Under the pieces are notes generated by a model. That model was not told the origin of the DNA, did no database searches, and was given only the letters and a program-made list of their open reading frames with translations. A stretch of DNA of 61,616 bases, counting the filler. It is 15 parts of 15 records of this genome, joined end to end, with 100 filler letters (N's around TTAATTAATTAA, not from the genome) between each part and the next. Parts side by side here need not be neighbours in the genome. Positions count along the whole stretch, not along the records: positions 33,565 to 36,786 come from SRR15195285_16671; 14 more parts are not named here. One strand, given 5' to 3'. This document shows, in pieces, positions 11,453 to 56,857 of this stretch (within the stretch, counting starts at the first letter, position 1; each line of letters begins with the position of its first letter). A program made the position numbers and the translations under genes.

Positions 11453-11480
11453 CGGGCATTAGGCCTAATGCCTGGTGTCA
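11453..11480. repeat. Palindromic dispersed repeat, copy 1 (at contig edge)
   Basis: CGGGCATTAGGCCTAATGCCTGGTGTCA; reverse complement matches the copies at 36760 and 56830. Confidence 0.85.
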
Positions 11481-14700: not shown

Positions 14701-15194
14701 GCGCGTCTCCGGTGGCACTTTCACGTTGCAGCCACGGTCCGGGACGGGTATCACGGCAGGGGTAGTCGGGAGGGGCATGGGCGCAGGCGGCGGAGCGCCA
14801 CCTCCACCACCACCACCACCACCACCACCGATAGGCACTGGGGCAGGCGGTGGCGCTGAAGATTTGGGCGTGCTCGCTGGCGGTGGCGGAGGCACGGGAG
14901 CAGGTTCTAGGACCTTCGCAATTGTGGCAGCTGGCTGAGCCAGCGCTAGCTGCTCCACTGGCATCGGCATTGGCGCTGGCGCCGGTGGCAGTGCCGGCAC
15001 CAGCGAGGGCGCCCCTGTCGAATCGCCGCCGCCCATACCCCAGGAGGTCAACATCAGCACGCCTGAGACGACGAACACCTACGCCGACCAACCATCAGAG
15101 TACCTCAGCAGCGGTCACAATTGAGGGTACAGTTGCTAGGACAAGGTTGATCACGGTCCCGCACCGCCAGCACCGCAAACTTCTGCAGGTTCAT
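11707..15194 (-). CDS. Type II membrane glycosyltransferase-like protein with Pro-rich stem and two tandem catalytic-like modules; multi-exon, 3' end approximate
   Basis: Spliced N-terminus MNLQKFAVLA|VFVVSGVLML (signal anchor); internal duplication WGPG..GY...NI.AK.GDE..FDVI and D.P.DR.REFR...VEVS; QKYSEAPTAGTLLMAD resembles a GT-B (CgeB/Glyco_trans_1_2-like) C-terminal motif. Confidence 0.6.
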
Positions 15195-15836
15195 CTCGCC
15201 TGCACTTCCTCGAACGGCCTCACAGCATGCCCGACCGCCTCAGCTGTACGCCCACCAGCCGCTGCCGCCCACCATCAATCACGGCGTAGGAGCCGGCCGC
15301 CAGTTCGATCACTCTAGCGCTGCTGCTGCAATCACCTCGCCCCGGCGCTTCTCCCTACCCCACTGCGCCCACAGCCGATCCAACCGCCCGGTGACCCACA
15401 GCGCCACCCACCCACCCACCCACCAACCAACCACCAGCTGCTCCAGCTGCTCCAGCTGCTCCANNNNNNNNNNNNNNNNNNNNNNNNNNNNNNNNNNNNN
15501 NNNNNNNTTAATTAATTAANNNNNNNNNNNNNNNNNNNNNNNNNNNNNNNNNNNNNNNNNNNNAAATGAACGAGCCGAGAGGCATTAAAAGCATCCTACC
15601 GTACCTGAGGTATTCGAATACTCGATCATAGTACGGTACGAGAAGATAACGAATGCGCGCGCCCGCCGGCGCCGGCCGCGGCCGCGCGGGACCATGCACG
15701 CGCACTTGGATGCGTGCACCCAGCATATCAGATATATATGTGTACGCGCCGGCGGCAATTAGAATCCGTCGATTGCGTACGGTCTGCTGGCGGGCAGAGT
15801 GGCAGTGGGCCCAGCTCTCGACGCGAGGCGACAGAT

Positions 15837-18838: not shown

Positions 18839-19150
18839 NNNNNNNNNNNNNNNNNNNNNNNNNNNNNNNNNNNNNNNNNNNNTTAATTAATTAANNNNNN
18901 NNNNNNNNNNNNNNNNNNNNNNNNNNNNNNNNNNNNNNGGAGGAGGAGGAGGAGGCGGAGGCGGAGGCCCTCGTATAGTAGTCGAGAGGGCTCTGCGGCA
19001 GCTGCCCGTCAACACCCGAGGGAGATGAGCTGAGGGGCGTGGGAGTGTGTGCGGCAGGAGGGGAGCTCGCTGGCCAGTGGGACGGAGTGGACGTCGGTTG
19101 ACGAAACTGACCGGCGGCGGCGTGCTTGCGGTGGGGTCGCTGCTGCAGCC

Positions 19151-22100
19151 ATGGCGGAGGAGGCGTTCGGTGGGTTCAGCCCGGTCCAGCAAGTGACGGA
19201 TGAGTCCACCATCGATGTGCTGGAGTCGATTCCACTGTTCGCCACCCTGCTGCGAGCCCAGCTGGTTCAGCTCGCTGGCGCGCTCAAGCGGCGCGAGGTA
19301 GCGCAAGGAGAGAGCGTCGTTGCAGAAGGCGAGACGGGTGACGTTATGTACATCGTAGAAAGCGGAGCGCTGCAGGCATCCGTTGCTAGTGTCGGTGTCG
19401 TGATGACGTACGGAGCAGGTGCTTTCTTTGGCGAGCTGGCGCTCGTCAACGATGAGCCTCGTAAGGCAACGATCACGGCAACCGATGCCAGCGTGTTGCT
19501 CGAGCTAAGCCGCAGCGACGTGTCTCCAGTGGCATCCAGCGCGCAGCTTAAGGAAGGGCTGGAGGACATCGAGAAGTCATACGCGGCAGCAGTCAGGACC
19601 CAGATCGAGTCGATATTCAGACAGATGGATTTGAATGCTGATGGTAGCTTGGACCCCATGGAGCTAAACAAGCGCCTTTCCGGGCTGGACATTGAAGAAC
19701 AGTACATCGAGAACGTGTTCTACAGCATGGACACGTGCGTGCCGCATCAACGCAGCCTGACTGCGCTGCCCCAGTCAGTCTTGCAGACTTGCGCCAACTG
19801 CACCTGTCAACCTGAAACTTGTGCTTTTTTGACTTCTGCTGTGCTCTGGCGCGATTGCGTTCGTTCAGGAACCACAATGGTATGATCGACCTCGACGAGT
19901 TTGTGGCGGGGTATGACAAATACATGGCGCTTGTGCGCACTGGTAAGTTTCTCGGTTCACAGCGCAAACTGAAGGCGGAGCACTTTCTTAAAACAAACGA
20001 TGAAATCCCGGCTGATGCGCGGGTCGTGTCAAAGTGGTGTGGTGGTACAATCAAGTTGCACAAATCCACCTACGAAGCAAACGACCCATCCGAGGACAGG
20101 TCAACGCTCGCAGTTGGAGATGATTTTGTGTTCTGCGGAGTGTGGGACGGCCATGGCGGAACGGCGTGTTCTTCATTCTCTGAAACGCAGATTTTCGAAA
20201 ACTTCCAGAAGGCTTTAGGAGATCCGCGCTGTGCTGGCGTACAAGACGCATTTGCCTACAGCTACATTCAAACCGACGGTGAATATCTCGACTACGCTGG
20301 CTCAAATCCGTCCTCGCTGTTCGCCGGGACGTGTGCAGTTGGGGCATACATCGATCTTACCACCAAGTCGGTGAGTGTGTCCAATTTGGGCGACAGTCGA
20401 GCGGTGCTCGGGCTGTTCAAGGGCAACGAGCTAGTTTGCGTGCCAATGTCCGACGACCACACAGCTGCGGACGAGGCCGAGAATGCTCGGTACGCATCAA
20501 GCATTACTCGCTTAACGCGCTGCTCTCTACCTTACAATTACGCCGCACGCGACCGCTGCAGGGTGAGGGCGTTGCACCCAAACGATCCAGGATGTGTGGT
20601 ACAGATGTCTGAGGAGGATGATGATTGGTAAGCTGCCTTGCCAACAGCTAGATGCATGAATCATTTTCACTCAGTTTCTTGCACGGTGTTGCGTAGGCGT
20701 GTCAAGCAAATATGCGCGTTCACACGAAGCATTGGCGACTGTCAAATGAAGGACAAAGGCGCAGCAACTGTGTACAACACCTACACAACCCGGAAAGTAA
20801 TGCCTCGTCCAGGAGTTCGTGCAAAGGGCGAGGCGGCCAAAACTCTGCCGTATATTGTCAACGTGCCAGACTACACAGAGCATAAAGACATGGGTGACGG
20901 CTTCCTGATCGTTGCTTGTGACGGAGTGTGGGACGAGATGAGTAGCGAAGAAGCAGTCAACATTGTGGCTCGACTAATCCTAGAGAATGCATCTAATGAC
21001 AATGATGTGCGGATAGCGCTGTCACCCACACCACGCCAACTCACCGTAATGGCCAACAGTGGTACTACTGACTCAGCGTCTGCGCGTCTGCTTTCTACAT
21101 ACTGCTTAGGTCGCGGAGCTTTTCATCGAGGAAGTACTGAAACACGCTGTGACCCGGTACATTAAGTAGACACCGAATGCCCACTAGCATGAACGTCAGT
21201 AACGTCACCAAGTCAAATTTTGTTGAGATTGCGATCGTTTATGTGCAGATGCCGTGAGAGTTACGACGAGGAGGAAGATCTGACTCTCGCTGAGCTGAAG
21301 AGTCGCCCCCCAGGGAAGGCAGAGTGGAGTAGCAGGTCACACCTGCACGATGATATCACAGTGGTCATACTTCACTTTGTTGCAGAATCGTCTAGCGCTG
21401 AGGGTCTGAAAGAGAAATATACGACGGTGGTTGAAGAAGCAATTGTACGTAACCACCAGTTTATGTGCACGGATGCTACCGTGGAAATTTGCGGCTTCTG
21501 CGTTCCTTGCACATTGACATTCGGTTGTGGTGGAATGTTGTCGCTGCGTATCTGGCACACAGCGAGCATCAGAGAGCCAGTTGCTTCGCATGGCGCGTGA
21601 GATTTTCGACAAGATCGACGTGGATGGATCAGGATCGATCACGGCTGATGAACTGGCCTTGCTTGCACGACGGTACGTCGGCCCCTTCGTCTGGCCGCCG
21701 ATGTAGTTGCACCTACAGGAAGTTGGTCTGCGTTTGAATTTACACGGTGTGATTGTTTCATGTTTGGTATGATGCAGGGCCGGTAGGCCAATTGAGGGGG
21801 CTGCGCTGGTGAAGGCCATGCAGGAGCTTGACACGGACGGGAGCGGTGAAGTTGACTTCGAAGAGTTCTCTGTGTGGTGGCCGAAGTACTGCGCCCGACT
21901 GACGAGCACACGGAATAGGAGTGGCTTTGATGGCGTGCTTGGTTCGGCAGTGGATGAGGTGGCGAGCCAGCAGTCTGAAGAGCGCGTGCAGTTTGACGCA
22001 CAGCTGCTGCAGGTAGTCAAGTTCATGGAAGGCAAGGACGCGTCGGAGCTCAAGGTAGAATTTGAGGGATTGGTGCGTCGACACCAGACATGTTGCGAAA

Positions 22101-31175: not shown

Positions 31176-32350
31176 GCCCGCCGCACCTTGGGAGCCACCT
31201 GTCTGACCACTCTAAATGAGCTCTGTCTGAGCTACAGCCCTCGCTGCCGTTGCCGTTCGTCCCATACACAGCCTCTACAGGCTATCCACAGGAGCTCTCC
31301 GCCTGCTGCATACCAGCTACATACAGCTGCTGTCGAGAGAGAAGGGGATCGGGCGGGTGTCACAATTCGCTGCCCCGCGAAAACTTGTACAGCTGTACAC
31401 CCGCCCACGCGCCGGCGCGCGCGGCGTCCCGGCGGCGCCAATGGAGGCGTGAAGACGTCGTGAGCGTCGTCGTGATGTCTCCCTTATGTGTTGCTGTAGT
31501 ATGACAAGTCATGTGTACACATGTATCCTACGGGGGATCCTCCCTCTCTCTAGAGGTCTCTCTAGGTCTCTCCCAGCCCAGCCCCCCAGCCCAGCCCCCA
31601 GCCCCAGCTGCTCCTACGGCTCGCTGCCCTACACCGCGTACCGTGTGTACATGTAGGATTCCTACCAGGTACGGTACAGTACAGTACCGGAACTCGCAGA
31701 AACTACACTCCGGGATCCGGGTAAGCAGACTTGCACAATTCATATTGTAGATCGTGCACAGAATTCAGAATCGAAGGAGTATTGTGATTCCGCGGTACTT
31801 GAGTACGAGCGTGTACATGTAATAGTCTCCCTCTGCGGGCTCAGTTCTTGAGCTTCTTGAATTCGCCTGCGTCGCCGACGCCACGATGACGCATCGCACG
31901 CTTCGCCGCGGCGGGCTTCGCGCCGCACGGCCGTCTGCAGCTGCTGGTACAGCGTACACCCACGGGGAGACTCAGTCTCCCCGTGGCATTAATACACCCA
32001 ACACCGAGTATCTCATTGTGTACTATCATACATTACCAGAGCGTGAATCAACACGATCATCCCCGCGTTGGTTGGAAATTCAAAAACCCTCAAATTGGCG
32101 ACGACCCGCCGGCGCGGGCCATGCAGCATGCACCGGCTGTGCGACGTCACGGTGACGCCGCACTGTTCGTTCCCCTGACCCCCGCCGTCCGCGCCGTCGG
32201 TCTCGCATTAGAGCATATCCTCAGAGATACGTGTACGCTGTACGTGCTATACGCCGCACGTACGGCGTGTACACGCTCTCGGTTGCTAGTGGCTCGGTCC
32301 TGCTGTGGTTAGAAACGAATTGCTGACGGGCGAGTACGGTACTGTGTGAA

Positions 32351-33328: not shown

Positions 33329-34154
33329 GTCGATAGATTGGAGGCAGCCTAGCAACATGTATGGTTTCTGGCCCGGCACTTGCGGTAGTAAACTAGTGTG
33401 CGCAGTACTTCATTTGCGTGGTGAGGACTATCGTCTGCAATCGACTGCACCAGACAGGCGATTGNNNNNNNNNNNNNNNNNNNNNNNNNNNNNNNNNNNN
33501 NNNNNNNNTTAATTAATTAANNNNNNNNNNNNNNNNNNNNNNNNNNNNNNNNNNNNNNNNNNNNTCTCTCAGGAACCGTTTACGGCTTGCGCATAAAGTA
33601 TGTCCCGAGCCTTGGCCACCTCGTCGGCCAGTACAATATGCGTATGCGGGGTATGCGGAGAGTTCAGGAGCTTTACAAACATATTCACAAGACAATTGCG
33701 TTAAATTCACCAATCAACTAAAGGCCAATCGCGCAAGCAGATATTCAATGCGAGACTTATCAGCTGCTTTGACAATGCCACTCCTCGAGTTGGGCGCTAT
33801 CTCAGCCATCGCCGCCTAGCCCACGCGGCCTGCGCCCCCCCTACACCCGTATAGGGCGCCACAACTGCACGTACAGCGCCATCGCCAGCGAGCTACGAGC
33901 TGCAGACTGCGAGGTGCAATCGCGGTCGTTGGTGCGAGGCAGTGCGAGGACATTTCAGGTGATTTCGACTCTACCATACCGAGTACGGCTCTGCTAGCGG
34001 CCTAGCGCGCATGGTCGCCGGTGGACAGCTGGACACGCCGCCGGCGGCCGCGCGCGCGCGCGGCCGCTAGCGGGCCGCCGGCCCACGCATCGGCGCACGG
34101 CGGCCCGCGGGACGCGCCACCCCAACGGGACGAACGAACGTAAGGAATCTGTCC

Positions 34155-36678
34155 ATGCTGCTGGTCGCTGCGCTTATCTTGCTCGCTATGTTGCATACCT
34201 GCAGCGCTGCAGCACCATTGGTGGTGGCTGTGCTGCGGGACCACGCGATCCCGGAGCGTTTCGACGTGGGCGCACTCATCCATTCGCTGTCACTCGAGGC
34301 CGATCTGAACATCAGCGTCATTAGCACTGTGCAGCTGGCAGATGCAGCCGTGCTGTCGCCGACTCGAGTGCGCGTACTCGTAGTTCCGAATGCCCCCGCC
34401 CTCCCCGCGTCCGGGCTGGCAAATTACCAGGCGTTTGCGATGGGCGGTGGGTCGCTTGTGCTCCTGGGTGGTAAGCCAACAATAGTGCCGGTGCGGTGGG
34501 GAGACCCTGCGGCACACATCAATGTAATGGAGGACTACGACGCGCTGAAAATGGACAGCGTTCAATCGGTACACGCCACTCCGAACACGGTTATCCCGGT
34601 CTTTAATGCTAGCGGTGCTTGGGCAGGGCTATCTGCTGTCGGATGGGCTGTACCGCACAAAGCTGTGGTCACGCCTGTACTCCGTGCCACCACCACCTAT
34701 GGGCGGGATGCTGGGTGGGCAGCTTCGCTGGTGGGGAATTTCGGCGGGTGGGGGGCACAGTGCCAGCCTGAGCACCCTGCACCAGCGCGTGGATGCTTCG
34801 TGGGGTCAGCCTTTCTCGTCTTCGGAATCACTACACCCAGTTTCTACTCGCAACCACAATTCACGGCGGTGATGGGTCCTGCTGTCCGCCGGCTTGCGAC
34901 CTACTCACCGCGCGAGCCGGCTGCAGCGCCGCCTACCCCGCCATTTCCATCGAACCGACAGCCTATGCGACCGTTGGCCGTTGGGTGGAATAAGCGTGCC
35001 TTGGTGGTGGACGGCACCGGCGAAGCTTTCCATGTTATTGGAGTGAATTTTCCGCAGCAAAGTTGGGCGAACCCTCAGGTTGAGAACACTGTCACGCAAG
35101 CCTCGGTGCGAGCAGATGTTGACAAAGTTGTGCAGCTCGGCTTCAATACTGTGCGTCTGGCGTGCTGCTGGGGACCACATGGGTTTGTACCCCAGAGTGT
35201 TGAGCTGACCAACATAGTGATGGATGCTCTCGCGATCGAGCGCATGCGCGTTTTGTACACGCTTCCGGTGAGTTTCGTATGACCACTACTTGTTCGCTCC
35301 TTTGCACCGACTCAGAAACGATGTGTCGCTCTCTACTATGTAGCCATGCACATCGGAAATACAGTGTGGGAACTACTCGGCCGGCACACTGCGGGCCCTT
35401 CTGCCTCGCCATCGCGACGCGGTCTTTGCAATCGATGTGCGCAATGAGGTGGTCACCGAGAATTTGGCAGATTTTCGCTGCAAGAATGGCTCGACACTTG
35501 GCACAGCAGTCGGAGGGTGGGATCCATCGCTGTGGCAACGGTTTCGGGCTTGGGCAAACGTGTCGCGAGACTTTGACAACTTTCGGTACGTGAAGCACAG
35601 GTTAGACAAAGATCTTCCGTCGGAATACCGCAAGATCTGGACTGCGACAAATCGAATGTACGCGACGTTTCTGTCCTGGCTGATTCCGGTCGTGCGACGG
35701 GAGCTGCCTGGGGCGCTCGTCTGCTGTGGTACATTTGATGAGCTTGAGCTGCTACCTGCTGCATCTATGGCTGACTTTGCGTGCCATCACTCTTACCCCA
35801 CCGTTGCCGGCGTTGCTGGCCAATGCGACTGCGCACACGACGGCGGGGCCTGCCTGACAAGTCCATGCGGCGAACTGGAAACTGTACCGTTGTCTGAAAT
35901 TGCTTCGCTGCCTGGTTCGCTTGCCATCATCGACTCTGTATTTGCTGAAAATGATGCAGTGCGGCCGATCATCCACGCGGAAACTGGGATCAGCAATGGT
36001 CTCATGTTGAACGCTCACGAATTTGTAGATCTTCACACTAGCAGTGTTTGGGAGGCGATGCTGTACCTATCACCCATTGCTCGAGGGTTTGCAGGCACCA
36101 TCCGCTGGACCGTCAACGACTTCGAAGCATACTCATCTACAGCTAGTGCAATCATCCCCCCACCGGCGTGTATTACAGAGACACGTGACCAACGACTTGG
36201 GCTGTTTGGCTACGATGGAACTGCCTCTGGGTTTCGGAAACCTGTAGCACATGCGCTGAGCTTCATTGCAAGATGGCTTCAGGGTGTTGGCACTAATATC
36301 TTTGGCCCTTTCGGGTCGCTTGAGATTCGAAACGGGTCGACGCCAATTCATGCGGGTTACACATTTACTGCCGGAGGTGTCCTTTTTGTCGGGGACAGGC
36401 AATTTAGCTCGTCACAGTTGTCGTTCTCAGCGAATGCAGCGGCAACCAATGTGTTCATTTTGCACAACGCAAGCACCGTGCGCGCAATGGCATCCGCGGA
36501 CACACGTGCGCAGCTGCGAGTCATGATGCTGGCTACAAAACTTAATCCAGCCACGGCTCTTATTACTGGTCGCTCGGGTGGATGGAGTTGGGAGAAACTT
36601 ACGGGCGAGTGCGTCTTGCAGGTGCTTCTACTCGAAGGCGAAGAGTTCCTTGTCACAACGCCAGACGGAGAAGAGTAG
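34155..36678 (+). CDS. Secreted clan GH-A glycoside hydrolase (GH5/GH42-like TIM barrel) with N-terminal GATase1-like domain; intron 35268-35343
   Basis: Signal peptide; FHVIGVNF, DVDKVVQLGFNTVRL, AIDVRNE (acid/base), PIIHAETG (nucleophile); GTGAGT...TAG intron joins both ORFs in frame. Confidence 0.75.
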
Positions 36679-36759
36679 CACAAAATAATGTACTGCCATA
36701 AGTATGTTGGTGAGATGCCACCACTGCGCTTCCAGTACACGCCCTTCATGGTGCGACTG

Positions 36760-36786
36760 TGACACCGGGCATAAGGCCCTTATGCC
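36760..36786. repeat. Palindromic dispersed repeat, copy 2 (at contig edge)
   Basis: TGACACCGGGCATAAGGCCCTTATGCC. Confidence 0.85.
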
Positions 36787-39082: not shown

Positions 39083-41311
39083 CTAGTTGGTGCCGTGCAG
39101 CCTCTGGCCGTTGTATGCCGTCGCAACCCTCTGTGTCACCAAATGTATAACCCATTGCAGCCTGTGGTGTAATGCTCGCCAGCCGGGACTGCAAACAACG
39201 CGTGCCACCAGCCTCGTACCAGGCCCAGCATTAGTGGACTCCACTACACCGCCACTGCGTTCTTTCCGGACACTATTTGCGGCCATCGGCGGATGCTGCT
39301 GGCAGTCAGCGCCAGCCGGCGGTGGGTGTGCATCCGCCCATACAGCGGACGCCGCAATCAATGCATCCTCACCAAATGGCCTCCCGATAAGCATCAACGC
39401 AAACTCTTGCCCTGCGCCCTGGGAGTGGGTGGAATCGTCCTCTTCTCCGCCTTCTTTTCCCTTTCCTTCTTGTGCTTTCGCAGCTTGCTTGGCCGACAGC
39501 CTTTGTTCACCAGTACCATACAGCGGCAGTGTAACTGCAGGACAACACATCATGCGAGCCACGGCTGGGACTGTCAGTTCAATTGTGTCCACATTGCTGT
39601 GGCCAACCGTTGGCCGCAATTGGTGTTTCTCCTCTGTCGGGATCACTGTGCACAGGAGATCGTATTTCGCAAAGAATTCGCCGACTTCCATGTGCAACTG
39701 TCGGTGCTGGTGGCGTTCTTCACGGTTGTAGGCAGGGCGTAATTCGTCTGCGTACTGGGCGTCTACATCCAGTCCGGCTAGCCAGAGTGGTGGGACAACA
39801 CCGATAGCGTAGTGCACTGCCAGGAGACAACAGCCAACCAGCCCAAGAAGCACTGTCACGAATTGCCCTTTAAACACGACCCCGTGCCCTAAGTTCGTGA
39901 GCTGGAGCCAGAAGGACAGCGGCGAGGGCACTGCCTCCACCATCGAATAGTCGGTCTTGTCGATCGGGGCAAAGGTCAGCGCCGCAGTGAGAGCAAGTAT
40001 CGCCATCGCGGACGGATACAGAAGCTGGCGGTGTGCTGTCGCAGCTCTCAGCATCCTGCCACTGTTGTACGTGCGCGCGCACCACGCGTGCACGCAACGA
40101 TTGTTGGTCAGGAGAAGCAAGTTTGATCGATTCACGCGGGAACTGAAGGAGCCGCAGCCGCAGACGAGGCAGGCAACCACGAAGGCAGGCAGGCTTGCAC
40201 GCAGCCACGTACGCACGCTCACTAGCAGGCTGTTGCAAAAGACGCACCTGGCACGTCTGCACTCGGTACCATGGCATCGTTGCAAAAGTGTTGATGGGTT
40301 GCTCAATGCCGGAGTGGCCTTGTCAACCCTGGCCCCGACACCTTCGAACCACTCTGCAGCAGCCTGGCATACTGTTGCGAGCCTCTCATGGCCAGGTGAC
40401 AGCTCCACCGACCAAGCGACCCGTGCTGGCAACGCCTGCGCTTGCCGAGCAACCGCCGTTTTTGGCACAGCCGTACGGTTGAAACCACGGGGCGGCGATA
40501 CTCCTCCACCCTCTGCCGCGGCGCGTCCTTGCGATACCGCACTGCGAGCGCCAGGCAGCCCGGTTGGCTTGGGTGCAGAGCCACCGGCGAGCGACAGCCG
40601 CGGCGGTGGACAAACGCCGGCGTTGCCCCAGCCTTCTGCAGCGTAGAGGCCGTCGTAGAGCAACGCAATGTCGTCAACCCCATGACCCAGCAGAGTAGCA
40701 TGCCAGTGCAACGCAGCGAAGTGCTCGCCATCCGGGTCGATCGTATGTGGTATTGTCGCCGGCGTGGGATGAAGGGCAACAATCCCGGCAGCTGCTGCGG
40801 TGCCGAGCACGGCACCGCAAGTAGTGTCAACGACGATCCCAACCGGTGCGTTGCCGCAGGCCACCGCCGCAACGGCGCCGCTGCCCACACCGGGGCCCGC
40901 GTTGCTCACTCCGACTAGAACAGCTCCTCTGAGCGCGAGACACTCCGTCACTGGGTGAGTCACGACCTCACCCGGTCTGATCGACTCACTGAGCCCGGAC
41001 GCGACCCCCCATCGGCGCCAGCACGCGGAACAGAGTGACCCATCCACCAAGATCGGCACTCCGTACAGAACATCTTGGCTCCGTGCGTCTGCGTCCGCTT
41101 GCAGCCGCGCCGCATCGTCTCGCGCAATATCGCCGCAGCTGACAAAACCAGGCAGCTCCGTAGCTCGAGCGCGTGCCAGAGCGTCCTCCACCCACGCCAC
41201 AGGCGACGGCCGCTCGGCGCTTGCGAGCACGGCCGTCGCAGAGCGCCTCCACAGCGCCTCCTCAGGCCGCTCGCCGCAGCTCTCGTCCACCTCGGCCGCC
41301 ATAATCGCCAT
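39083..41311 (-). CDS. Degenerate amidase-signature-family protein with inserted transmembrane segments (probable in-frame intron near 40060-40270)
   Basis: LYGVPILV, LRGAVLVGVSN, GAVAAVA, GIVALHPT, FFAKYDLL, PAVTLP, LMLIGRPFGEDALI follow the amidase fold order. Confidence 0.7.
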   Translation of the reverse strand: MAIMAAEVDESCGERPEEALWRRSATAVLASAERPSPVAWVEDALARARATELPGFVSCGDIARDDAARLQADADARSQDVLYGVPILVDGSLCSACWRRWGVASGLSESIRPGEVVTHPVTECLALRGAVLVGVSNAGPGVGSGAVAAVACGNAPVGIVVDTTCGAVLGTAAAAGIVALHPTPATIPHTIDPDGEHFAALHWHATLLGHGVDDIALLYDGLYAAEGWGNAGVCPPPRLSLAGGSAPKPTGLPGARSAVSQGRAAAEGGGVSPPRGFNRTAVPKTAVARQAQALPARVAWSVELSPGHERLATVCQAAAEWFEGVGARVDKATPALSNPSTLLQRCHGTECRRARCVFCNSLLVSVRTWLRASLPAFVVACLVCGCGSFSSRVNRSNLLLLTNNRCVHAWCARTYNSGRMLRAATAHRQLLYPSAMAILALTAALTFAPIDKTDYSMVEAVPSPLSFWLQLTNLGHGVVFKGQFVTVLLGLVGCCLLAVHYAIGVVPPLWLAGLDVDAQYADELRPAYNREERHQHRQLHMEVGEFFAKYDLLCTVIPTEEKHQLRPTVGHSNVDTIELTVPAVARMMCCPAVTLPLYGTGEQRLSAKQAAKAQEGKGKEGGEEDDSTHSQGAGQEFALMLIGRPFGEDALIAASAVWADAHPPPAGADCQQHPPMAANSVRKERSGGVVESTNAGPGTRLVARVVCSPGWRALHHRLQWVIHLVTQRVATAYNGQRLHGTN

Positions 41312-41547
41312 CCGGGACCCAGTCCCCAGTGATTTCTCGGTGAGCCTCTCGAGANNNNNNNNNNNNNNNNNNNNNNNNNNNNNNNNNNNNNNNNNNNNTT
41401 AATTAATTAANNNNNNNNNNNNNNNNNNNNNNNNNNNNNNNNNNNNNNNNNNNNGCCTGTCTACTCTACAGTACCCTCCTGCGGTATCTCCACTCCCCTA
41501 TGGCATTCCTCTCGTGTGGTATTGCTGTGGCACTGCCTGCGTCTCAC

Positions 41548-45812: not shown

Positions 45813-48748
45813 TTACACCACATAAGAAACTGTTTTAGCTTCGCTACGCCGGCGGTTGCTTAGGCTGCTCCTGCCTGGACTGCTGAGTCGATCATACAAG
45901 CCTCCACCGCCCGCTTGCTTTTTCTGCCTGCGCTGCGACCCCGCGCGAGGTGTGCCGGATCTTGGCGTTGAACGGCCACGCTTGGATCCTGCGGGAGAGG
46001 ACGCACGGATACTTGCTGTAGACACTCTCTTCGCCCCCGACGTGCGCTCGTTCACAACGTTGTTCCCACGGTCTCGCGCCTCCTGTTCCTGTTGCTGTGC
46101 CGGCACCAACGACTTGGGTTGCTGGCGATGATCCGTTGTCGTTGTTCTCGACGTCGAAGTGTAAGATCGTGTTGCCTGCTGAACAACCCTGGCGTCTGGT
46201 GCAGCATGTACAGCACTGGTATCCGCTGCGGGCTCCGCAGTGAGACCCGCTGTTACCTCAGCTGCAGCCTGCTCCTCAACTCGTTTCTTGGCATTTAAAA
46301 AAGCAATCGGTGCTCCTTTGGAGAAAGAGTCTCTGTCCATCGTATTTCGTCGAGCTCGACGGAGCCTCTGGATGTGCGCTGATTCGCCCATCCGACCGCT
46401 AGGCCTTCGACTCGCGCCCTTGGGAGTCGGGGCCCCATTCGTGATTGTTGTTTCGTTTTCGGCTGCATTCGCCAACGTGCGAGAGTGCTGCAGCTGGTCA
46501 GCAGCCCTACAAGGCGTGCCACTCGCTGATTCGCTTAGTCCTGAGCTAGGTGCCGCCACCGCTACCGCTACTGTAGCGTGAGCATTCGCTTGCGTACGCA
46601 GTTGTGCGATTTTCGTGTCCTTGTCGACACTGGCCTGTCGCAGTTGCTGAACTTCTGCCTTTGACACAAGAAGCTGCTGCTTCAGCTGTGCAATCGTGCA
46701 ATTCGCAGCTTCCCTCTCCGATGTGTCTGACAAGCGACTTTGATATGCGTCGCGCTCATCTGCCGTTGTGACCAATTCCTCTTCAAGCTCCTCAATCGTT
46801 TGACGCAGCTCTTTCACTTGCTCATCTGACGTCTGCTTGTGACTCTCAAGCATCTTGCGCACCTCAGTCGCAACCTCGCGCTGACCTTGAGCAAGTGCCT
46901 CAGCACCTGCCAGCTGTGCCTGCACTTGGTCTTTCTCCTCAGCAAGCGCTTGCAATTTGTGCTTCAATTCTCTGATCTCAGTCTGATCCCGCCTGCCGCT
47001 GTCATTTCGCAATGCAGCCTCGGCTTCCGAGGTCGCTCGGGCAGTGCGCAAATCTGACTCCAGCTGTTCGCAACGTTGTGTCAGCTCGCGTTCGCGCTGC
47101 TTTGCGCCATCTACTCCATCCGCGGCAGATTGCTGGGCAGCAGCAATCTGGCCCGTCAATTCTTGTATCGCGTGTGTTTTCTCTTCAATATCTGCAGCAT
47201 GCTGGTCTGATTGCAGCGCCATTTCCTCCAGCTTGCTCTCCAACTCGACCACACGAGACTCTGCCTGCAGACGTTCCTGGTCAATACACCGTCGCAGCGT
47301 GTCCACAAATGCACGACGGCACTCCACCAGTGTCTGCCGAGACTTGAATCGAGTCCAGCCTGAAGATATGGTATACGCAGCGGTGTGCTGGGGCAAAGAC
47401 TGAGAGATCTTTCGTTCAGCTTCTAGTTTAGAGGCAGTCTCGCGAAGCTGACCTTCGGTTAGACGCTCGTTACGCTGCAGCTCTTCGAATTCATTCTGCA
47501 GTTGACCATACGCTGCAGCTCGTTCTGCGTCCTTGGACAGCAACTTCTTTTCCCGTACCCCAGCCGCTTCCAAGTCTGCTTCGGAGTCCTGTAGACGCTT
47601 TCGCAGGTCGTTTGCTTCTTCCGTCAGGTTGCCGTTTGTCTTGCTTTCCTGCTCCAGGCGACTTTCAATCTCAAGCAGCCTATGTGTTGCGCTGGCTTGC
47701 TCGGAAGATAACTTGTCGGCAGCAGCAAGCCGGTCGCTAGCTAACGCTAGCGAGGCCTGTGCATCGGCTAGATCTTCAGATGTCGCGGCGTGCTGCTCTT
47801 GTTCTGCCTCTAAAGACGCCTGGGCGATATCAGCGTCGACGCGCAACTCAGTTTGCTTGGTTCTAGCTTCGTCGCGCTCACGTTCCAACTCCGCCAACTT
47901 TCGCTGCTGCGCCTGCAGCCGCAGGTACACTGTCCCATCGATCGGTGCATCCGCTGAATAAACACCAGATGCCACCGTCCGCTCCTGCTCGCGCATAGCC
48001 TTCTCCTGAAGTTTCAGCTGTCTGTTCAGCTCTACTTTCTGTTGTACAACGTTCTTCGTCTTGTTCTCTGAAGCTCGCAAAGCGGAGCTGAGGCGCTTGA
48101 CATGTTTCTCCATGCTCTCCACCTCAGCCCGAAAGGCTTCTTTCTCGGTGGACCACGTCCGAGCCTGTGACCTGAGCTGCTCCACCTCTGCGCGCAGCTT
48201 GGTAGCAGTCGGCGGGACGGCGCCGAGGCTAGAGCGACGTGTAATGGCGCTCTTCTTCCGCCCCTCGCCGCTCAGTTTGCGACGTTCACTATCCACCTCA
48301 GCGCGCATCTTCTTTTGCAGGCGTGCCAAGTCCTTGGCGGCGCGCTTGCTTGCTGCAGCCGCCTGCTGGCTGCTCGTTTTTACGTGCTGCTCAAGCTCGT
48401 AATTTTGTGGCGAATAGAGCACGGCGTCGAGCAGCCCGACAGCGTTTGGACCATTGGCCTCAGGCGAAACGGCGCCCGCGGCAGGAGCGTCGCCGCTTGC
48501 TTGCTGCGTCTCCACGCACAGCTCTACCGTCGCGTCGTCGCCACCGTCGGCCCCAGTCACCAACTTCTCCGTGCTCTCCTGCTTGTGGGCCGCAATGCTC
48601 GCGGTACTGTCACCGTTCTCGCCTTTACTCTCAATGGAAACCTGCTTCTCCATCTCCGCAAAGTCCATGAGGGCCTCAGCATCGACGTCGTCCCGCTGCT
48701 GCTTCGCGGGAGACGCTGCTGGATCCGCGGGAGACGCTGTTGTATCCG
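45813..48748 (-). CDS. Long coiled-coil protein with basic disordered C-terminus; possibly 5' partial
   Basis: 951+ aa intronless ORF with continuous E/Q/A/L heptads. Confidence 0.8.
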
Positions 48749-48848: not shown

Positions 48849-51340
48849 CCGCCGCCGCCGCCGCCGCCGCCGCCACCGTGGTGGCGGCAGCGCCAGGCAG
48901 TGCACAGGCCGAGGGGCCTGCGGAGGAGGGAGATGCCGAGGGCGGCATGATCGAGGACGAGCAGCCGGGAAGCTCGGGGAGCGAGCACGAAGACGGCGAG
49001 GACGACTACGAGGCGGTCAGGCGCCGGAACATCGAGCGGAACAACGAGAAGCTGCGCGAGCTGCAGCTCTTTGGGCTGTCTTCCATGGCGCCGAAGGGCA
49101 TCACCCCACGCCGCAAGCGGGCCACGGCGGCCCCGCCGGTCGCACCAACCCGCGTCAGTGGCCGCGAACGCAAGCGGTCCCAAGCCGCGGTCCGCGCCGA
49201 GGAATCGGAGAAGGCCCACATGGAGTGGCTGAACGAGGAGAGGGAGAGCAAGAATGCGCGGCGTGCGGCCAGGAAAAACCGAGGCCGATCGAGGGAAATT
49301 TGCGAAGACTGCGAGGTAAAGACCCCGTCGTTCGGGTTGGCTTCCGATCGCAAGCGGCGCTGGTGCCACCCGTGCGCCCAGCACCACAGAGGGGCAGTGC
49401 TGCTGAAAACTCGCACCCTGTGCGAGGACTGCAATCTGGTAGACCCGTCGTTCGGGAAGGAAGGCGAGAGGAAACGCCGCTGGTGCCACGGGTGCGCCGT
49501 GCAGCACGCAGACGCGGTCTGCCTAAAGAGCTCGCACGGTAGGTCGGTCGGCTGGTCCCCGGCAGCCAGGGCGAACATGAAGGCCGCTGTGTATTTGCCG
49601 CGTGGCTGGAGCGCGCACTACCCTCAGCGCACAGCCTGGAACAACGGACCATCAAGGTTGAACGAAAGCCGCGGTCGACAGGGAAGGGGCCCGAAGCAGC
49701 CGATGCTGCCTCCTCCGCCGGTCGTGCAGGGCTACAAGCCTGGTGGGTTCAGCATGCACTACCCTGAGACGGTACGCGCTCCGGTCCGTCCTGGGAGCGC
49801 TCCGGCCGGCCGTGGTGGTAGAAGATCTGCAGGGAGGGCACCTCGTCCGCCGTGCGAAGATTGCTTTTCTAAAGATCCTTCGTTTGGAAGTCGCGAGGAC
49901 CGCAAGCGCCGCTGGTGTCAGAGTTGTGCTGAGAACCATCCCGGGGCCATTCTGCTGAAGAAGCGCACCCCATGCGAGGATTGCCTGGAAAAGGACCCGT
50001 CATTTGGGCTCGTGATTGACCGCAGGCGTCGATGGTGCTACGGCTGTGCGATCCACCACGCCGGTGCAGTCTGCCTCAAGAGTTCAGGACACAATAAAAA
50101 CCCACTCGGCCGGGCCGTCGGCCCGCCGCTTCCAGGGACGCTTCCAGGGACGACATTTCCTCCAGGGACGCTACCGCCACTTCCAGGGAAGCTTCCGCCG
50201 TCAGACGGTCCGCCACCGTCTCAGGGACCAGAGCCGCAATCGCAGCAGCAGTCAGAGGCAGCACGGGCACTGCCCACAAAGGCACAAGCAGAAGCGGTGC
50301 TGCAACCGCCGGACAAGGCTCCAGGGCTGACAGGAACAGAAATAGACGACGATGTGTGCATGGTGTGCAATATTGATGGCCACCATGACAAGTTGCTGCT
50401 CTGCGACAGCTGTCCTGGGGCCTACCATACCTTCTGCATGGTCCCGGCACTGAGCGCGATACCAGATGGTGCGTGGTTTTGTGATACATGCAAGAAGTCT
50501 GGGGTCGAGGAGTGCAAGCCGCTCACCGCTGCAGATGCTTTAGAAGCCGCCCGCAACTGGTACGACAACAAGAGTTTTTTCGGGGTGACAGCAGGTCTTC
50601 GGATGCAGCCGATCAAGGCCTACCGCAATTCTGACGTGGCGTGGTCGATCTCATACACAACCAACCCGCCAACGGAGGGCTCGCCGTATTTCGTGCGGGC
50701 GGAGTTTGTCCGAATGCGGCAGGACGACAACAGCTTCGTTTGGACGCCAGAAATCTTTGACGAGGAGGGCGCCTCGCGTCATCGCGACGGTCACAAGCTG
50801 GAGTCCGCTGCAGTGGCGGGCGGTGCAGCAGCTGCCGCAGCAAACGATGAGGCCAGGAAGGCGCCGGCACAAATGAAGAAGAGACGTGTCGGTGAACGCG
50901 TGATGGCAATGTTTCACGACGCTCACACCTATTTCGCGACAATCGTAGCCGTGCACAAGGTTGAGAAAGCCGACGATGGGAAACCGCCTAGCTACACGTA
51001 CACCATCGATTGGGATGATGGTGACCCAACTTGCCGCCAACGATCTGAGCAGCAGGTGTTTACTCCCGGAGAGCATCCAGACAAAGACGAAGACGACCAG
51101 TATGAGCAGCTCAACGCGAAGATTGAGCCCGCAGTTGCTCCGGTCGCACCGGCTGCTAAGATTGAGCCCGCAGTTGCACCGGCCGCACCGGAAACTGCGG
51201 CAACCACTCAGCCCAGTAACTCTGCTGAAGTTGACTCCTCACAATCTCGCACCGGTCGCGTTAGAAAACGGAAGAAGACATTCGACCCAGAAGTCGAGAA
51301 TGGTAAGCCGCAGTGGGCCCCAAAAGTCAGCAAGAGTTGA
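48849..51340 (+). CDS. Nuclear protein with 4 Cys-rich Zn repeats (EsV-1-7-like), PHD finger and Tudor-like domain; 5' partial
   Basis: CEDC...PSFG....KRRWC..CA x4; CMVC...LLLCDSCPGAYHTFC...IPDGAWFCDTC; VGERVMAMF...YTIDWDDGD. Confidence 0.85.
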
Positions 51341-52543: not shown

Positions 52544-53073
52544 CGTCAGGCTGCTCAGGACAGACAGCGACACCACCACAGGGATGGACGCGTTCGGAAC
52601 TGCCCGGCAGTTGGCACGGGAGCTTTACAAACTCGTATATAATTATCGATGAATCACTGTAATGATCCTAAGCTAGTACGAAGTTGTTCCGGTTCTAAGT
52701 GAGATGACGGGTTCAACTGTTTTTTTCCTGCGCGGCGTTCCTTTTTGCTCACAAGGGTGGGTTGGATATGGGTTGGATTCTTGTGGAGTATGTAAAACGC
52801 ACTGATAAATACNNNNNNNNNNNNNNNNNNNNNNNNNNNNNNNNNNNNNNNNNNNNTTAATTAATTAANNNNNNNNNNNNNNNNNNNNNNNNNNNNNNNN
52901 NNNNNNNNNNNNGCTGGATGCGCCTGCTACCGGGGGTGCTGGGGAAGCCGCTCGCGGGTGCTGTGGGGCGGTCTCTGGCTGGTGGAAAGGCGTTTTTCGT
53001 TTTTATTTGAGTTTGACCTTGAGGTTCGAATAAATCCGAAATCGCCTCTTTTCGTCGCGATCGCCTCTCTACC

Positions 53074-53518
53074 TCAACGATGGCGCGTCATCCTTGGCGC
53101 GGGCGCGTAGACTACGTTTCCCGAGGGCGGGGCGTCCCACTGCACCTGGTGGGTGTTCTTGTTGATGTAGTAGGGCGTGCTGCTTGAGTAGTGTATCTTA
53201 ATCCAATCTGCGATTCGAACGCAGTAATCCCTTGTGATTGGATTTGTGACAGAGAGTCAGAGAGGCGCAGGCGAAGGGAGGCAGAGCGTTGATCGCACTC
53301 TCTGGTTGATTAGCCGCCACTGCAGTGGGTTGTGGAGTCGGCTCCGGGCTGGTCTGTGTTTCTCCGAGGGGGGAGAAGGGAACAGTCAGGTCAATCGCGG
53401 CGTCTCTGGTGGTGGCGTGCTTGATGGTGGTCTCCTTGGCAGATGCAATCGGCACGTCGTGAGAATCATGTACGCGCTGCATGAGCCGCCGCCACGCAAC
53501 CGAGCACCTGCTGTCCAC
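53074..53518 (-). CDS. WW-domain-containing 3' gene part (upstream exons unresolved)
   Basis: Exon starting 53207 reads WIKIHYSSSTPYYINKNTHQVQWDAP; GTGCG...CAG intron upstream. Confidence 0.5.
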
Positions 53519-54728
53519 TCAGGGGTCGACCAGAGCGTGGGGGAGAGTGCAGCTAAGGCCACAGGACTCGCAAGGTCGGCAGGTACACGTGTTGTGCTGG
53601 GCGACCTGACTGCTGGCTGGCAGCGTTGCAGGCATGGTGCCGGAGATCCGGCTGAAGCCGATGAGCATGGCCAGCTGCTCGTATCAGTGGCCGGGACGCC
53701 GCTGGACGCCTGGCTGGTGGTGGCCGTGAGCCTACGGAGACGGTGGAGCGCACAGGTCAGTCACGGCAGCCGGCAGTGGCAGCAGACAGCAGACAGTCAG
53801 TGGCAGCAGCAGCAGCAGCGGTGGTGGAGCAGGTAGCCACCAGCAGCAGCAGGCGAGGCTGGTGATGCCACGAGCCAGCCTGTTCGAGCCTGCGCACGCA
53901 GCCAGATGGCTCCGGGTGCCGACCGCGGTTGTCCGGGGCCGGCGCGGTGCGCGCGGAGCAGCCGAGCGCGGCCACAGCGCGGCCGTGTGCCGAGGGCACG
54001 AGCGTGGTCACGAGCGCGCGAGCGCCAAGGTCAAATTCGCCGGTGGTGGAGGTCAAATTCGCGGCGGGTGGCGGGCCGGCAGCGGCGGCTTGCAGGCGGC
54101 CCCGGCGGCGACCCGCACATCGCCGGATACCTTGGCTCCTGGCCCGAGGGCTGGCAGCAGCGGCGCGGGTCACAGAGCCAGCCGTGGCTCCGTCGTCCAC
54201 CGTCGCTCCGGAATTTCGGATGAACTGCCCCCGAATTTGACCTCCCGAGCGGATTAATCGGAATTGCATGAGTACTGTACGCAGCAGTACGCCGTACCGT
54301 ACACGGTCATCGACGGCCACGCAGTTCTGATGCAATCACAGTGCCCAGATCTAGTACCATGTTGTTGGGTCAAGCAGCTGAAACAAGGTTATCAAGTTAC
54401 ATTTGTGTTTTGCCGCCGCAGTGCAGCCGCAATGCGTCGTTGGGCACTGCCCACCCAGATCCAGTGCTGCACCCCGAGACCTGAGTTGGCCCCATGCCCC
54501 AGCCGGCTGGTCATGGGGATGATGTTGTTGAAATTGAAACCAACTGGCGGTGCCGTAGTGTACGTAGGTGGCACCAGGTTGCTGCTGCTACTGCTGCCGC
54601 TGTTCTTTTCTGTTGTTGCTGCTACATTGCCAGTGTGTATGCAGTACCGTACGCACCGCAAGCTTCGCAATGCTTCGCAGCAGCTCGTCTGCATGTCCAT
54701 CGCACCCCCACAGCACCCAGCCAGTCAC

Positions 54729-54815
54729 ACGCCACTCGCCCTCGTACCACACGCCGTCGGGCCAGGTAAATGTGCCAATACCGTGCCACTCGCCCTCGCG
54801 CCACTCGCCCTCGTG
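54729..54815 (-). pseudogene. Isolated MORN-repeat fragment (mini-exon or relic)
   Basis: HEGEWREGEWHGIGTFTWPDGVWYEGEWR with an in-frame stop shortly upstream. Confidence 0.5.
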
Positions 54816-55311
54816 CCGGGTCAGCTCGAGGCGCTGTTCGACATGTGCACCAGGCCGTTACCGGATTTCCCTATGATTCTGGGGGGTGGGGTGGGTGGGT
54901 CAGGAATTCTGTTCATTGGGTGGGTGGGGTCTTCGGGATGGTGTCGCAGTAAGGTGGGGACCCCGGCAAAAGAACATAACCCAGCCGCATGCAGCCCCCG
55001 CCCGCGGAGCCGCGCGCGCGCGTGGGCGTGCGCGCGCGTGGGCGTGCCGGCGACCCGCAACTGCGACTGCGGCGTGCTTGCTGTCGGTGCTGTCGGGGGC
55101 GGAGCCGACACTGCATGGCGGAAGCGGCGAGGTGAGGAGCAGCAGCGAGTGGACGCCGAGTGCATTTGGCTGTCGCTGTGCTTTGCATGCCTGCTGGCTA
55201 ACAGCTGATCCATCTACCACTGCGGTGGCGGTGCCGGCGAAGCTGCTCCACAGCCTGTACGCGCAGTCGCAATCTCGCAAGCACTCAGGGGTTTATCTAG
55301 CGTGGCTGCTA

Positions 55312-56736
55312 ATGCCGTTCAAGCCAGCAACAGCGGAACAGCAGCTGGTGGCCATCGGTCTCGGTGCCGACAAGAACCCCCGGGACGGCTGTTACAAGGT
55401 AGACCAGTCGTCTATGACGCACTACCCGCGCAAATGTATCACGGACTCGACCTTTCGTTCCGAGCTCAAGGCTGCTCTTCAGCCAACCCCGGCTTGCTTC
55501 TGCTGTTTAGGCAAGGCCAAGCCCGGCGAGTGGTTGGACTGGGCGATGGAGCCCGGACAGAGCTTTGACCAGTACGCGAGCAGTGGTCCGCCGCGCCCAT
55601 CACGGGAGCGCGACACTATCTATTTGTTGCCGCTGACATTAGCCGCAGAGCAGCGGACGAGATCGGGTGATCTAGAGCCGGAGCCCGAGTCGCAAGCGGA
55701 TGAGCAAATGATGGGTGGCACGCTGCCCCCGCTGGAGCCGTTGGTGAAACTCGTGCAGGCCTACTACCAGCTCGAGGTTCGAGTGCTGCCGCCACTGCTT
55801 CTCTCCAAGTTGCGCCCAGCTCACCGAGGCAGCGGAACATCAACGCAGTACGACGCTACGTCGATCCTCGTGGGCCTAAAGAAGATTTTACCGCCAGATG
55901 CGCACACATTGTGTGCTGTAACTATGGCAGATATATGGCACGGTGACCTACTCTTCGTGTTTGGATGTGCAAACCTCGAGTCGCGCTGTGGCGTATTCTC
56001 GTTCTGCCGTCAAGACCCTACGTATTATGAGAGTGTCCCGAGGAAACGTACTGTGGCGGAGCAGCAGCTACTCTATCAACGCGCGAGCAAGACTGTATGC
56101 CACGAGATTGGACACACCTTCGGTATGCAACACTGCACGTTTTATCAATGTCTTATGCAGGGTAGCAATGGATTGGACGAGACAGACGGTCGCCCTATGC
56201 CACTTTGTCCTGTTTGCTTGCGGAAGCTTCTTTGGAATCTCAACACTCCGGCTGAAACTGCTCGAAATTCGCGGGAAGCCCGCGAAGCTCGGAAAAAGGT
56301 GGCAATCTCAGCTGTGAATCGTTACGAAGCGTTGCTGGCGTGCTATACCGAGCAAATGGAGTCGGTCTGCCCAGCGTTCCACGTCGAGGCTGAGTGGATC
56401 TCGAAGCGCTTGGAAATCATCCGTGCAGGAGGAGCCCAGGCCGCCTCCAGCGGCGTCCGCGCGCCTGGTTTGAGCATGCTGAGCGAAAGCCCGACTGTGT
56501 TTAAGAGTGTCAGTACCAAACCACTCGCGCTGCGCTCGGCAATGGACAAATCCTCGGCCCGTCTGGGCGCCCTAGCACCTGGCCAGCGTACGATGGCACT
56601 AGAGTTGGCACGCACTACATCAGGCACAACACGCGTAAAGACTGACGATGGATGGGCAACAGCGGTCACCAACACTGGAAAAGTGCTAATGCGAACGTGC
56701 AGCGGTGGTGGCGCTCCTATGACCAATGGCTCCTAG
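55312..56736 (+). CDS. Archaemetzincin (peptidase M54)
   Basis: EPGQSFDQY, FVFG, GVFSF, HEIGHTFGMQHC...CLMQGSNGLDETDGRPMPLCPVCLRKL. Confidence 0.92.
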   Translation: MPFKPATAEQQLVAIGLGADKNPRDGCYKVDQSSMTHYPRKCITDSTFRSELKAALQPTPACFCCLGKAKPGEWLDWAMEPGQSFDQYASSGPPRPSRERDTIYLLPLTLAAEQRTRSGDLEPEPESQADEQMMGGTLPPLEPLVKLVQAYYQLEVRVLPPLLLSKLRPAHRGSGTSTQYDATSILVGLKKILPPDAHTLCAVTMADIWHGDLLFVFGCANLESRCGVFSFCRQDPTYYESVPRKRTVAEQQLLYQRASKTVCHEIGHTFGMQHCTFYQCLMQGSNGLDETDGRPMPLCPVCLRKLLWNLNTPAETARNSREAREARKKVAISAVNRYEALLACYTEQMESVCPAFHVEAEWISKRLEIIRAGGAQAASSGVRAPGLSMLSESPTVFKSVSTKPLALRSAMDKSSARLGALAPGQRTMALELARTTSGTTRVKTDDGWATAVTNTGKVLMRTCSGGGAPMTNGS

Positions 56737-56829
56737 GGATATGGCATGCTAGCGACAGCACAACTGCTATTATGCCCAGTGCCAATCTAAAATTATAGCC
56801 CCTCTCAAAATTAAAGATGTATCTAGGTC

Positions 56830-56857
56830 TGACACCGGGCATAAGGCCTTATGCCCG
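56830..56857. repeat. Palindromic dispersed repeat, copy 3 (at contig edge)
   Basis: TGACACCGGGCATAAGGCCTTATGCCCG. Confidence 0.85.

Follow-up and report, generated by a model that had tools for sequence, protein, structure and literature searches.

Why should several contigs of one assembly end inside the same short palindrome? The question is raised by the window, the whole stretch of DNA that was analysed, which comprises 61,616 bases in 15 contigs, each 3.1-5.8 kb long, with N44-TTAATTAATTAA-N44 spacers between them. As the original prediction had it, three of the 15 contigs stop 27-28 nt into one and the same palindrome:

36760-36786, right end of its contig: 27 nt of a 35-nt variant with a central C, cut by the contig end
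56830-56857, at a right-hand contig end that truncates it: 28 nt of the canonical 34-mer
11453-11480, at a left-hand contig end: 28 nt, TTAGG/CCTAA subfamily, truncated by the contig start

The terminal letters of contig 33565-36786 are TGACACCGGGCATAAGGCCCTTATGCC and those of contig 52913-56857 are TGACACCGGGCATAAGGCCTTATGCCCG; contig 11453-15463 opens with CGGGCATTAGGCCTAATGCCTGGTGTCA. A profile built from the palindrome and its motif arm (described below) scores 28.9 and 23.2 bits at 36760-36786 and 30.3 bits at 56830-56857 in nhmmer. The arm 13-mer of the palindrome matches the window with zero mismatches at two places alone, 36760 and 56830, and has a one-mismatch match at 11468; neither this 13-mer search nor the nhmmer profile found an internal copy anywhere in the 61.6 kb. 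The copy at 11453 had been described as carrying a paired, symmetric change. The mirrored TTAGG/CCTAA in place of TAAGG/CCTTA is indeed present, but the description passed over an extra one-sided change, in which CCTGG faces CGGG on the opposite arm, so that the arms of this copy are not perfectly symmetric.

Palindrome copies in other assemblies and the breaking of contigs

A single scan of a metagenome contig collection, with a pattern open to the three variants present in the window, found 34 contigs in 22 independent marine assemblies, each contig containing a complete 34- or 35-nt palindrome with unrelated sequence on either side; L008, L017 and L034 are the same locus, as are L022 and L024, which leaves 31 independent loci. 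There are 11 distinct palindrome strings among the 34 copies. Seventeen copies are identical to the canonical 34-mer, so the consensus originally reconstructed from the truncated window copies was exact, and the extra central C at 36760 belongs to a natural variant class, an extra base being present in 13 of the 34. The outermost TGA/TCA edges recur in 32 of 34 copies, though they were absent from the search pattern; in L007 the edges are mirrored as TGT...ACA. The total of 37 copies was for the most part ascertained with a symmetric pattern, and all contigs are short. Parts of contig 33565-36786 are contained in 19 runs from 16 studies, and the viral contig collection gave no match to the palindrome pattern.

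These copies bear directly on whether the palindrome is a technical artefact, that is, an adaptor, a primer or an amplification fold-back, as the original prediction had itself allowed. Such an origin would account for the confinement of the palindrome to contig ends in the window, and a fold-back would automatically mirror any change in an inner arm. However, complete copies with two different flanks occur in all 34 contigs from the 22 assemblies, and 12 of them lie deep within their contigs, at least 200 nt from both ends. The 11 variants are not one fixed synthetic sequence, the arms are asymmetric in the window copy at 11453 and in L033, and several studies contribute runs with the palindrome, one of RNA and the others of DNA. 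The internal copies in independent assemblies refute the artefact reading, which we dismiss with near certainty. The palindrome is, with high confidence, a real dispersed repeat family that breaks assemblies.

Logan contigs of four public runs (X1-X4, of which X2 is RNA) were aligned to contig 33565-36786, with the following results:

Run X1: summed depth ~3.6 over the unique gene and 5,520 in bin 36697-36786; 77 of 107 contigs run over the end
Run X2 (RNA): summed depth ~3 over the unique gene and 309 in bin 36697-36786; 15 of 25 contigs run over the end
Run X3: summed depth ~18 over the unique gene and 13,971 in bin 36697-36786; 282 of 482 contigs run over the end
Run X4: 2 of 18 contigs run over the end

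Across runs X1-X3 the summed contig depth is ~90 to 1,500 times as high in the palindrome bin as over the adjoining unique gene, a ratio that also counts relatives in the same sample and is not equal to copy number. The loose left ends of the contigs that run over the end at 36786 are mutually different, which indicates many different flanks. Each genome certainly has copies in the hundreds, plausibly about a thousand; the density in the window is 3 copies in ~60 kb.

Three of the 30 contig ends in the window fall in the palindrome, and 17 of the 34 metagenome copies lie at most 100 nt from a contig end, against 5.1 expected (p = 1.6e-6). The proposal of a high-copy hairpin that breaks the assembly is thus borne out by the depth, by the fold energy given below and by the position of all three window copies and 17 of 34 metagenome copies at or near contig ends. 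Mechanistically, a repeat shared by hundreds of loci would make a de Bruijn graph branch once a k-mer lies wholly inside it, and the contig would stop there; we take this occurrence at hundreds of loci to be why the window contigs stop. All three end 28 nt into shared sequence when, for the copy at 36760, the G before TGA is counted, a G that is common to 14 of 27 copies. From this we infer that the stops fit k-1 = 28, as for a de Bruijn unitig at k = 29, which is a step in the default list of a common metagenome assembler. Palindromy alone does not stop the assembler, since it passes three near-perfect, unrelated single-copy palindromes with 11-13-bp stems inside contigs (31959-31987, 40796-40819 and 47124-47152).

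Other contig ends of the window are repetitive as well. The 14-mer CCCAGTGATTTCTC occurs at 41325-41338 and 61587-61600, 16 nt from the contig ends at 41354 and 61616, after which the sequences diverge; its two exact matches compare with 0.33 expected, two being reached in 5 of 100 shuffles, and it may be a second short assembly-breaking repeat. Simple repeats stand at further ends, namely (GGA)n at 8141 and 18939, CAGCTGCTC at 15463, (CCG)n at 48849 and (GT)n at 56958. In this assembly it is common for contigs to break off at repeats, and these are of several kinds.

Anatomy, edges and symmetry of the repeat

The module consists of TGACACCGGGCATAAGG, 0-1 nt and CCTTATGCCCGGTGTCA, which gives 34 or 35 bp and a single-strand hairpin of 15-17 bp; folded as single-stranded DNA it reaches -16 to -20 kcal/mol (z -5.5 to -7.6). 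Among the 34 metagenome copies the extra central base is missing in 21, G in 9, C in 3 and A in 1, and its orientation relative to the arm side is mixed (1 G, 2 C). The palindrome appears in two forms, either alone between unrelated flanks or as the outermost part of a one-sided arm. Alignment, a motif map and a profile search together identified the arm at 14 ends in 12 independent loci, about one third of all loci. It is built of the palindrome, then ~10-15 nt usually starting with CGCC, then 2-4 direct CCGGGCATA(C/A) motifs ~25-30 nt apart that are oriented as the proximal arm of the palindrome. Arm similarity between loci stops after ~60-130 nt and unrelated sequence lies beyond, while the side of the palindrome opposite the arm is always unique. 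One doubtful stretch in the window was considered as a possible weak remnant of such an arm:

56768-56829, - strand: on the gene side of the copy at 56830, with one TATGCCCAG motif at 56771

The nhmmer alignment extends through it to profile position 84, with a gain of only ~4 bits (34.3 against 30.3), and this gain was not counted as evidence for an arm beside the window copies.

A single clean two-ended unit is known, 503 bp long, at L019 298-800; the remaining arm-bearing contigs, L020 aside, are too short for a second end. Its two inverted ends belong to the same subfamily, have the palindromes outermost and enclose ~360 bp; the inverted repeat measures 57 nt and the interior contains a (CGCCG)n-like run. 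L020 also has two ends, of different subfamilies. Its right end, a member of the L019 subfamily where the left end is not, halts exactly at the palindrome centre (...CATAAGG|) and is followed by unrelated DNA, and L020 was accordingly rejected as a second complete unit. Subfamilies are apparent elsewhere: L032 carries the palindrome TGATATAGGGCATAAGGCCTTATGCCCTATATCA, in which each arm has three mirrored changes and which is followed by a motif arm of the usual kind, and the TTAGG/CCTAA subfamily is found at three loci (window 11453, L012 and L022/L024). Degenerate extra copies cluster 0-400 nt from an intact one (L018 30-50, L019 829-868, L005 138-178 and L026 670-704); in the copy at L019 829-868 a 14-nt insert replaces the centre. 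A 139-bp repeat, 95% identical between L023 285-423 and L004 148-286, abuts the palindrome edge in L023 only, there being no palindrome beside it in L004; it may be a diverged arm or a separate mobile piece.

The edges of the palindrome were analysed in the 27 copies with 20 nt on both sides. Exact direct repeats that could represent a target-site duplication were found in 0 of 27 for k = 2, 3 and 5-10 and in 1 of 27 for k = 4, and flank identity between the two sides equals that of the mismatched-pair control. The L019 unit, flanked by cgttg and aatga, likewise lacks a duplication. The inverted identity of the flanks is 0.19-0.22, so the palindrome ends at its edges. Position -1 is G in 14 of 27 copies and T in 2, and position +1 is A or C in 21 and T in 3. 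Nothing is conserved outside the palindrome on the outer side in the 34 copies, and the outer 32-nt flanks are not enriched in hairpins (mean -2.74 against -2.74 kcal/mol in controls, p = 0.49). A contig of run X3 that is ~96% identical to the host gene matches it as far as the last base ahead of the palindrome (36759) and then continues as a 465-nt unlike stretch; it is possibly an empty allele, a hint of presence/absence polymorphism.

Symmetry is kept along with the sharp edges. An alignment of 32 copies (12 distinct) has 98.9% of its cells paired, and in 6 of the 15 stem pairs both sides have changed; none of 500 shuffles matches this, and slid controls pair at 28-39%. Mirrored changes include A/T in L016, TGT/ACA in L007 and the three per arm in L032, and there are four one-sided changes, one in L033, one in the window copy at 11453 and two in L019 298-331. 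Because the search pattern left few positions free and demanded both arms, copies that are decayed or asymmetric are under-represented, and the figures for conservation and symmetry are too high; most of the mirrored changes come from positions or copies that were left unconstrained. A dimeric protein that reads both half-sites gives mirrored changes equally well, and a hairpin intermediate is therefore not proven.

These features can be set against an ordinary DDE-type foldback or MITE family, in which palindrome and arm would form a long TIR and the solo copies would result from recombination of terminal palindromes, like solo LTRs. The L019 unit, with its two inverted ends, outermost palindromes and repeat-rich interior, has the form expected of such a family, and the direct motifs recall Ac, En/Spm and P elements, in which subterminal direct motifs are transposase-binding arrays. 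To our knowledge, however, DDE cut-and-paste enzymes always duplicate their target and a recombination-derived solo would retain the duplication of its parent, whereas no target-site duplication is present at the solos or at L019 (0/27 for most k). Moreover, the interiors beyond ~120 nt are unrelated between copies, and only one clean two-ended copy exists. A DDE-type family is thus unlikely, and from the missing duplication we infer that the movement is probably non-DDE. For the same reason the repeat falls outside the strict definition of a MITE, one of the three options originally named, and the bare 34-bp palindrome, which makes up most copies, is shorter than any MITE known to us. Like MITEs and Galileo/FB-type foldback transposons, the repeat is small, non-coding, high-copy and near genes and has, at L019, long inverted ends built of sub-repeats, but the target-site duplication that defines them is absent here; elements of this kind are treated in PMC4168063 and PMC5172404.

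Host genes, gene context and transcription

The palindromes of the window stand near three open frames, for which the original prediction had given distances of ~80-230 bp past a stop codon:

35437-36678, + strand: ORF upstream of the copy at 36760; stop codon 36676-36678, 81 nt before the palindrome
54886-56736, + strand: archaemetzincin-like ORF (Peptidase_M54, E = 8e-12); stop codon 56734-56736, 93 nt before the palindrome
11707-11970, - strand: 87-aa open frame, unsupported as an exon, whose stop codon would lie 226 nt from the copy at 11453

The first two distances agree with this range. For the copy at 11453 the 226 nt hold only through the unsupported 87-aa frame, and the distance is otherwise 561 nt. 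The gene labels fared similarly: archaemetzincin is confirmed by the Peptidase_M54 match, and relatives carry PF07998, but the labels GT-like and GH-A are not, the corresponding ORFs, 35437-36678 included, having no Pfam match.

The ORFs of the window are of eukaryotic type (cNMP-binding with EF-hand, PP2C, ankyrin, PHD, class-3 GPCR with dual-specificity phosphatase), and the GC content of its contigs is 0.52-0.61. The host genome is probably the nuclear genome of an uncultured marine protist lineage; a protein search yielded no close relative with a name. Several of its frames deserve mention in their own right. The 708-aa frame at 58352-60475 (-) joins a 7tm_3 domain (class-3 GPCR seven-helix) to a DSPc / Tc-R-P phosphatase domain, an unusual pairing; two overlapping frames at 19034-20628 (+), cNMP-binding with EF-hand and then PP2C, are likely parts of one gene, interrupted by an intron or a frame change, for a phosphatase that senses cyclic nucleotides and calcium; and the 829-aa frame at 48851-51337 (+) has a PHD finger and an EsV-1-7 cysteine-rich motif, whose name was first given in a brown-algal virus.

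Nuclear-type flanking genes also set the repeat apart from organelle palindromes. Short palindromic repeat families occur in organelles, among them the yeast mitochondrial GC clusters, the palindromes of Volvox organelles and the family of Lobosphaera mitochondria (PMC4524435). The likeness lies in short GC-rich hairpin repeats spread through intergenic DNA; the flanking genes here, however, are nuclear-type (cNMP-binding with EF-hand, PP2C, PHD, class-3 GPCR), with a GC content of 52-61%.

The nearest gene end, judged from Pfam-supported or long ORFs, could be evaluated in 15 cases:

3' side, Pfam-supported: L009 131 nt; L011 94 nt; L021 181 nt; L024 279 nt; window 56830 93 nt
3' side, long ORF without Pfam match: L001 225 nt; L028 122 nt; L031 225 nt; L008 group ~310 nt; window 36760 81 nt
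3' side, doubtful: window 11453 226 nt
5' side: L002, L029, L013 and, less surely, L019

All lie in intergenic or untranslated sequence, on the 3' side of genes in 11 cases and on the 5' side in 4 (p = 0.06). Solo copies are mostly 3' (5:1) and arm-bearing copies mostly 5' (1:3), a difference that is not significant (one-sided p ~0.12, hand calculation). The presence of copies on both sides means that the palindrome is no dedicated 3' signal and has no tie to gene ends, so the 3' processing signal that had been offered as another of the three options is not supported in view of the 5' copies at L002, L029, L013 and possibly L019, the 3' bias (11/15) being weak.

RNA contigs contain the palindrome in run X2 (15 of 25), which fits transcription of copies in untranslated regions; DNA in the RNA library would also account for it. 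RNA contigs of the same run cover parts of the ORF 35437-36678, up to 36443. The RNA-to-DNA depth ratio is 6-17 times lower for the palindrome bin than for the gene. Run X3 holds a skip joint 34064-36760 with a short side of 24 nt, and parts of the gene are without RNA contig cover in run X2.

A host cis-element under selection, either a transcript-ending or processing hairpin behind genes or the palindromic binding site of a dimeric regulator, would explain the maintained symmetry, the RNA contigs of X2 and the 11 of 15 cases in which the nearest ORF end is a 3' end, at 81-310 nt. We nonetheless consider it very improbable. The 3' bias is not significant and four copies lie on the 5' side; a hairpin signal needs neither identity of letters over 34 nt nor razor-sharp edges; the one-sided arm, the clustered degenerate copies (L005, L018, L019, L026) and the subfamilies resemble a repeat family; the RNA-to-DNA depth ratio is lower at the palindrome than at the gene; and no Rfam family reached the gathering score for the window plus 14 of the 34 loci. 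Under the mimivirus 'hairpin rule' a hairpin stands directly behind most genes, with its structure conserved and its sequence not. Here, by contrast, there are only 3 copies per ~60 kb with many genes, the sequence is near-identical between loci, and 4 of 15 copies are 5'.

Mobility and comparison with known systems

It is likely that the palindrome repeat is a mobile element. Our fuller reading, held with moderate confidence, is of an interspersed repeat, very abundant, whose constant module is the palindrome; it is or was mobile, is free of duplications and is probably moved by a non-DDE enzyme that reads the hairpin or palindrome. The lack of duplication together with the kept symmetry points to an enzyme that probably reads a hairpin or palindrome, and not to a DDE cut-and-paste transposase; that a hairpin-reading non-DDE enzyme is what moves the repeat is a more tentative suggestion. 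Candidate enzymes would be an HUH-type single-strand nuclease, as in the Helitron/Helentron Rep or the RAYT acting on REPs, or a site-specific recombinase. The direct CCGGGCATA motifs may serve as extra binding sites for the moving protein, and the palindrome centre, i.e. the hairpin tip, may be a reactive or fragile point of cutting, joining or breakage. The 0-1-nt variation at the centre, the cut at the centre in L020 and the replaced centre in L019 are the grounds on which the hairpin tip is proposed as the cutting place. The solo copies need not move by themselves and could have arisen from longer units by deletion.

No Rep/helicase, HUH, recombinase or DDE protein lies next to the element in the contigs in hand, all shorter than 4.3 kb; Pfam detected no transposase in the 89 ORFs of the loci on these contigs, and no Rep/helicase was found in the ORFs of the window or of the loci. 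One large frame does adjoin a palindrome, the 678-aa ORF at L013 337-2373 (-), 31 nt away on the outer side, with a YLDD motif and no Pfam match. It resembles reverse-transcriptase clusters, by language-model features only. As it lies on the outer side of the element, it was rejected as the partner enzyme and is treated as a neighbouring retroelement, probably a 5'-truncated non-LTR retroelement adjoining the hairpin according to this model-based resemblance.

The best reading of the repeat places it closest in form to Helentron/HINE and bacterial REP elements, the former being its nearest match in described structure and the latter in size and behaviour. According to passages of PMC4067079, Helentrons and HINEs (mite and Culex families) have short palindromic inverted repeats near both ends and insert without target-site modification, and HINE/DINE-1 elements are high-copy non-coding Helentron derivatives that are often mistaken for MITEs and have central microsatellite or tandem repeats. 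As far as those passages go, the likeness extends to the palindromic inverted ends of L019, the absence of target modification and the central repeats, the interior of L019 being (CGCCG)n-like. The same passages of PMC4067079 also mark differences: their palindromic repeats are 12-15 bp and subterminal, whereas those here are 34 bp and terminal; they insert in TT with T runs at the edges, whereas T occurs here in 2 of 27 copies at -1 and 3 of 27 at +1; and their separate stem-loop, 8-35 bp from the 3' terminus, was not found here. A Rep/helicase partner is likewise missing from the window and the loci.

A REP-like element is the nearest in form of the three options originally named, in that the repeat is a 20-40-nt extragenic palindrome of high copy number and kept symmetry, but the comparison breaks down over the GTAG/CGTC tag, which is absent, and the eukaryotic host. 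In the portions of PMC3116915 and PMC3733652 that describe them, REPs and REPINs are 20-40-bp palindromes that occur in the hundreds in extragenic DNA as singlets or inverted pairs and are moved by RAYT (HUH Y1); shared with the repeat here are the kept stem symmetry, the lack of target duplication and the frequent position just behind genes. On the same partial descriptions, REPs bear a GTAG or CGTC head tag where the element here starts with TGAC, and they are prokaryotic, whereas this repeat is eukaryotic nuclear and its pattern had 0 matches in 185,579 prokaryotic species genomes. The palindrome here is perfect, with a 0-1-nt loop and a one-sided motif arm. REP doublets are tight, as far as described, whereas the inverted pair here is ~430 nt apart; and the RAYT gene is flanked by REPs, whereas no RAYT-like gene is known for the present host.

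The likeness can be taken further, to a bare 34-bp hairpin that is itself the minimal mobile unit, a counterpart of REP/REPIN in eukaryotic nuclei that would move as single-stranded DNA, without duplication, by an HUH-type or structure-specific enzyme. The hairpin tip would then be the site of cutting and joining, the enzyme would land on the CCGGGCATA arm, and the TTAGG/CCTAA solos at three unrelated loci would reflect the spread of solos, not decay. We think this further step rather doubtful.

Descriptions of such a repeat in protist nuclei were absent from the literature searched, and no paper in the full-text literature contains a 20-mer of the palindrome. The main text of PMC8599508, on Picozoa single-cell genomes, does not contain 'palindrom', and that of 10.64898/2026.04.17.719054, a 2026 preprint on marine protist single-cell genomes, contains neither 'palindrom' nor 'transpos', supplements aside in both cases. 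For this uncultured lineage, the palindrome repeat accounts for a share of assembly fragmentation, and contigs that end in it should not be taken as chromosome ends or gene-end signals. RNA stability or silencing in this organism could also be influenced by perfect hairpins transcribed in their hundreds within untranslated regions. A perfect 34-bp palindrome in perhaps a thousand copies, duplication-free and with mirrored changes, is an unusual nuclear repeat, and if it is true that the moving enzyme is hairpin-specific, REP-like biology would be extended to eukaryotic nuclei.
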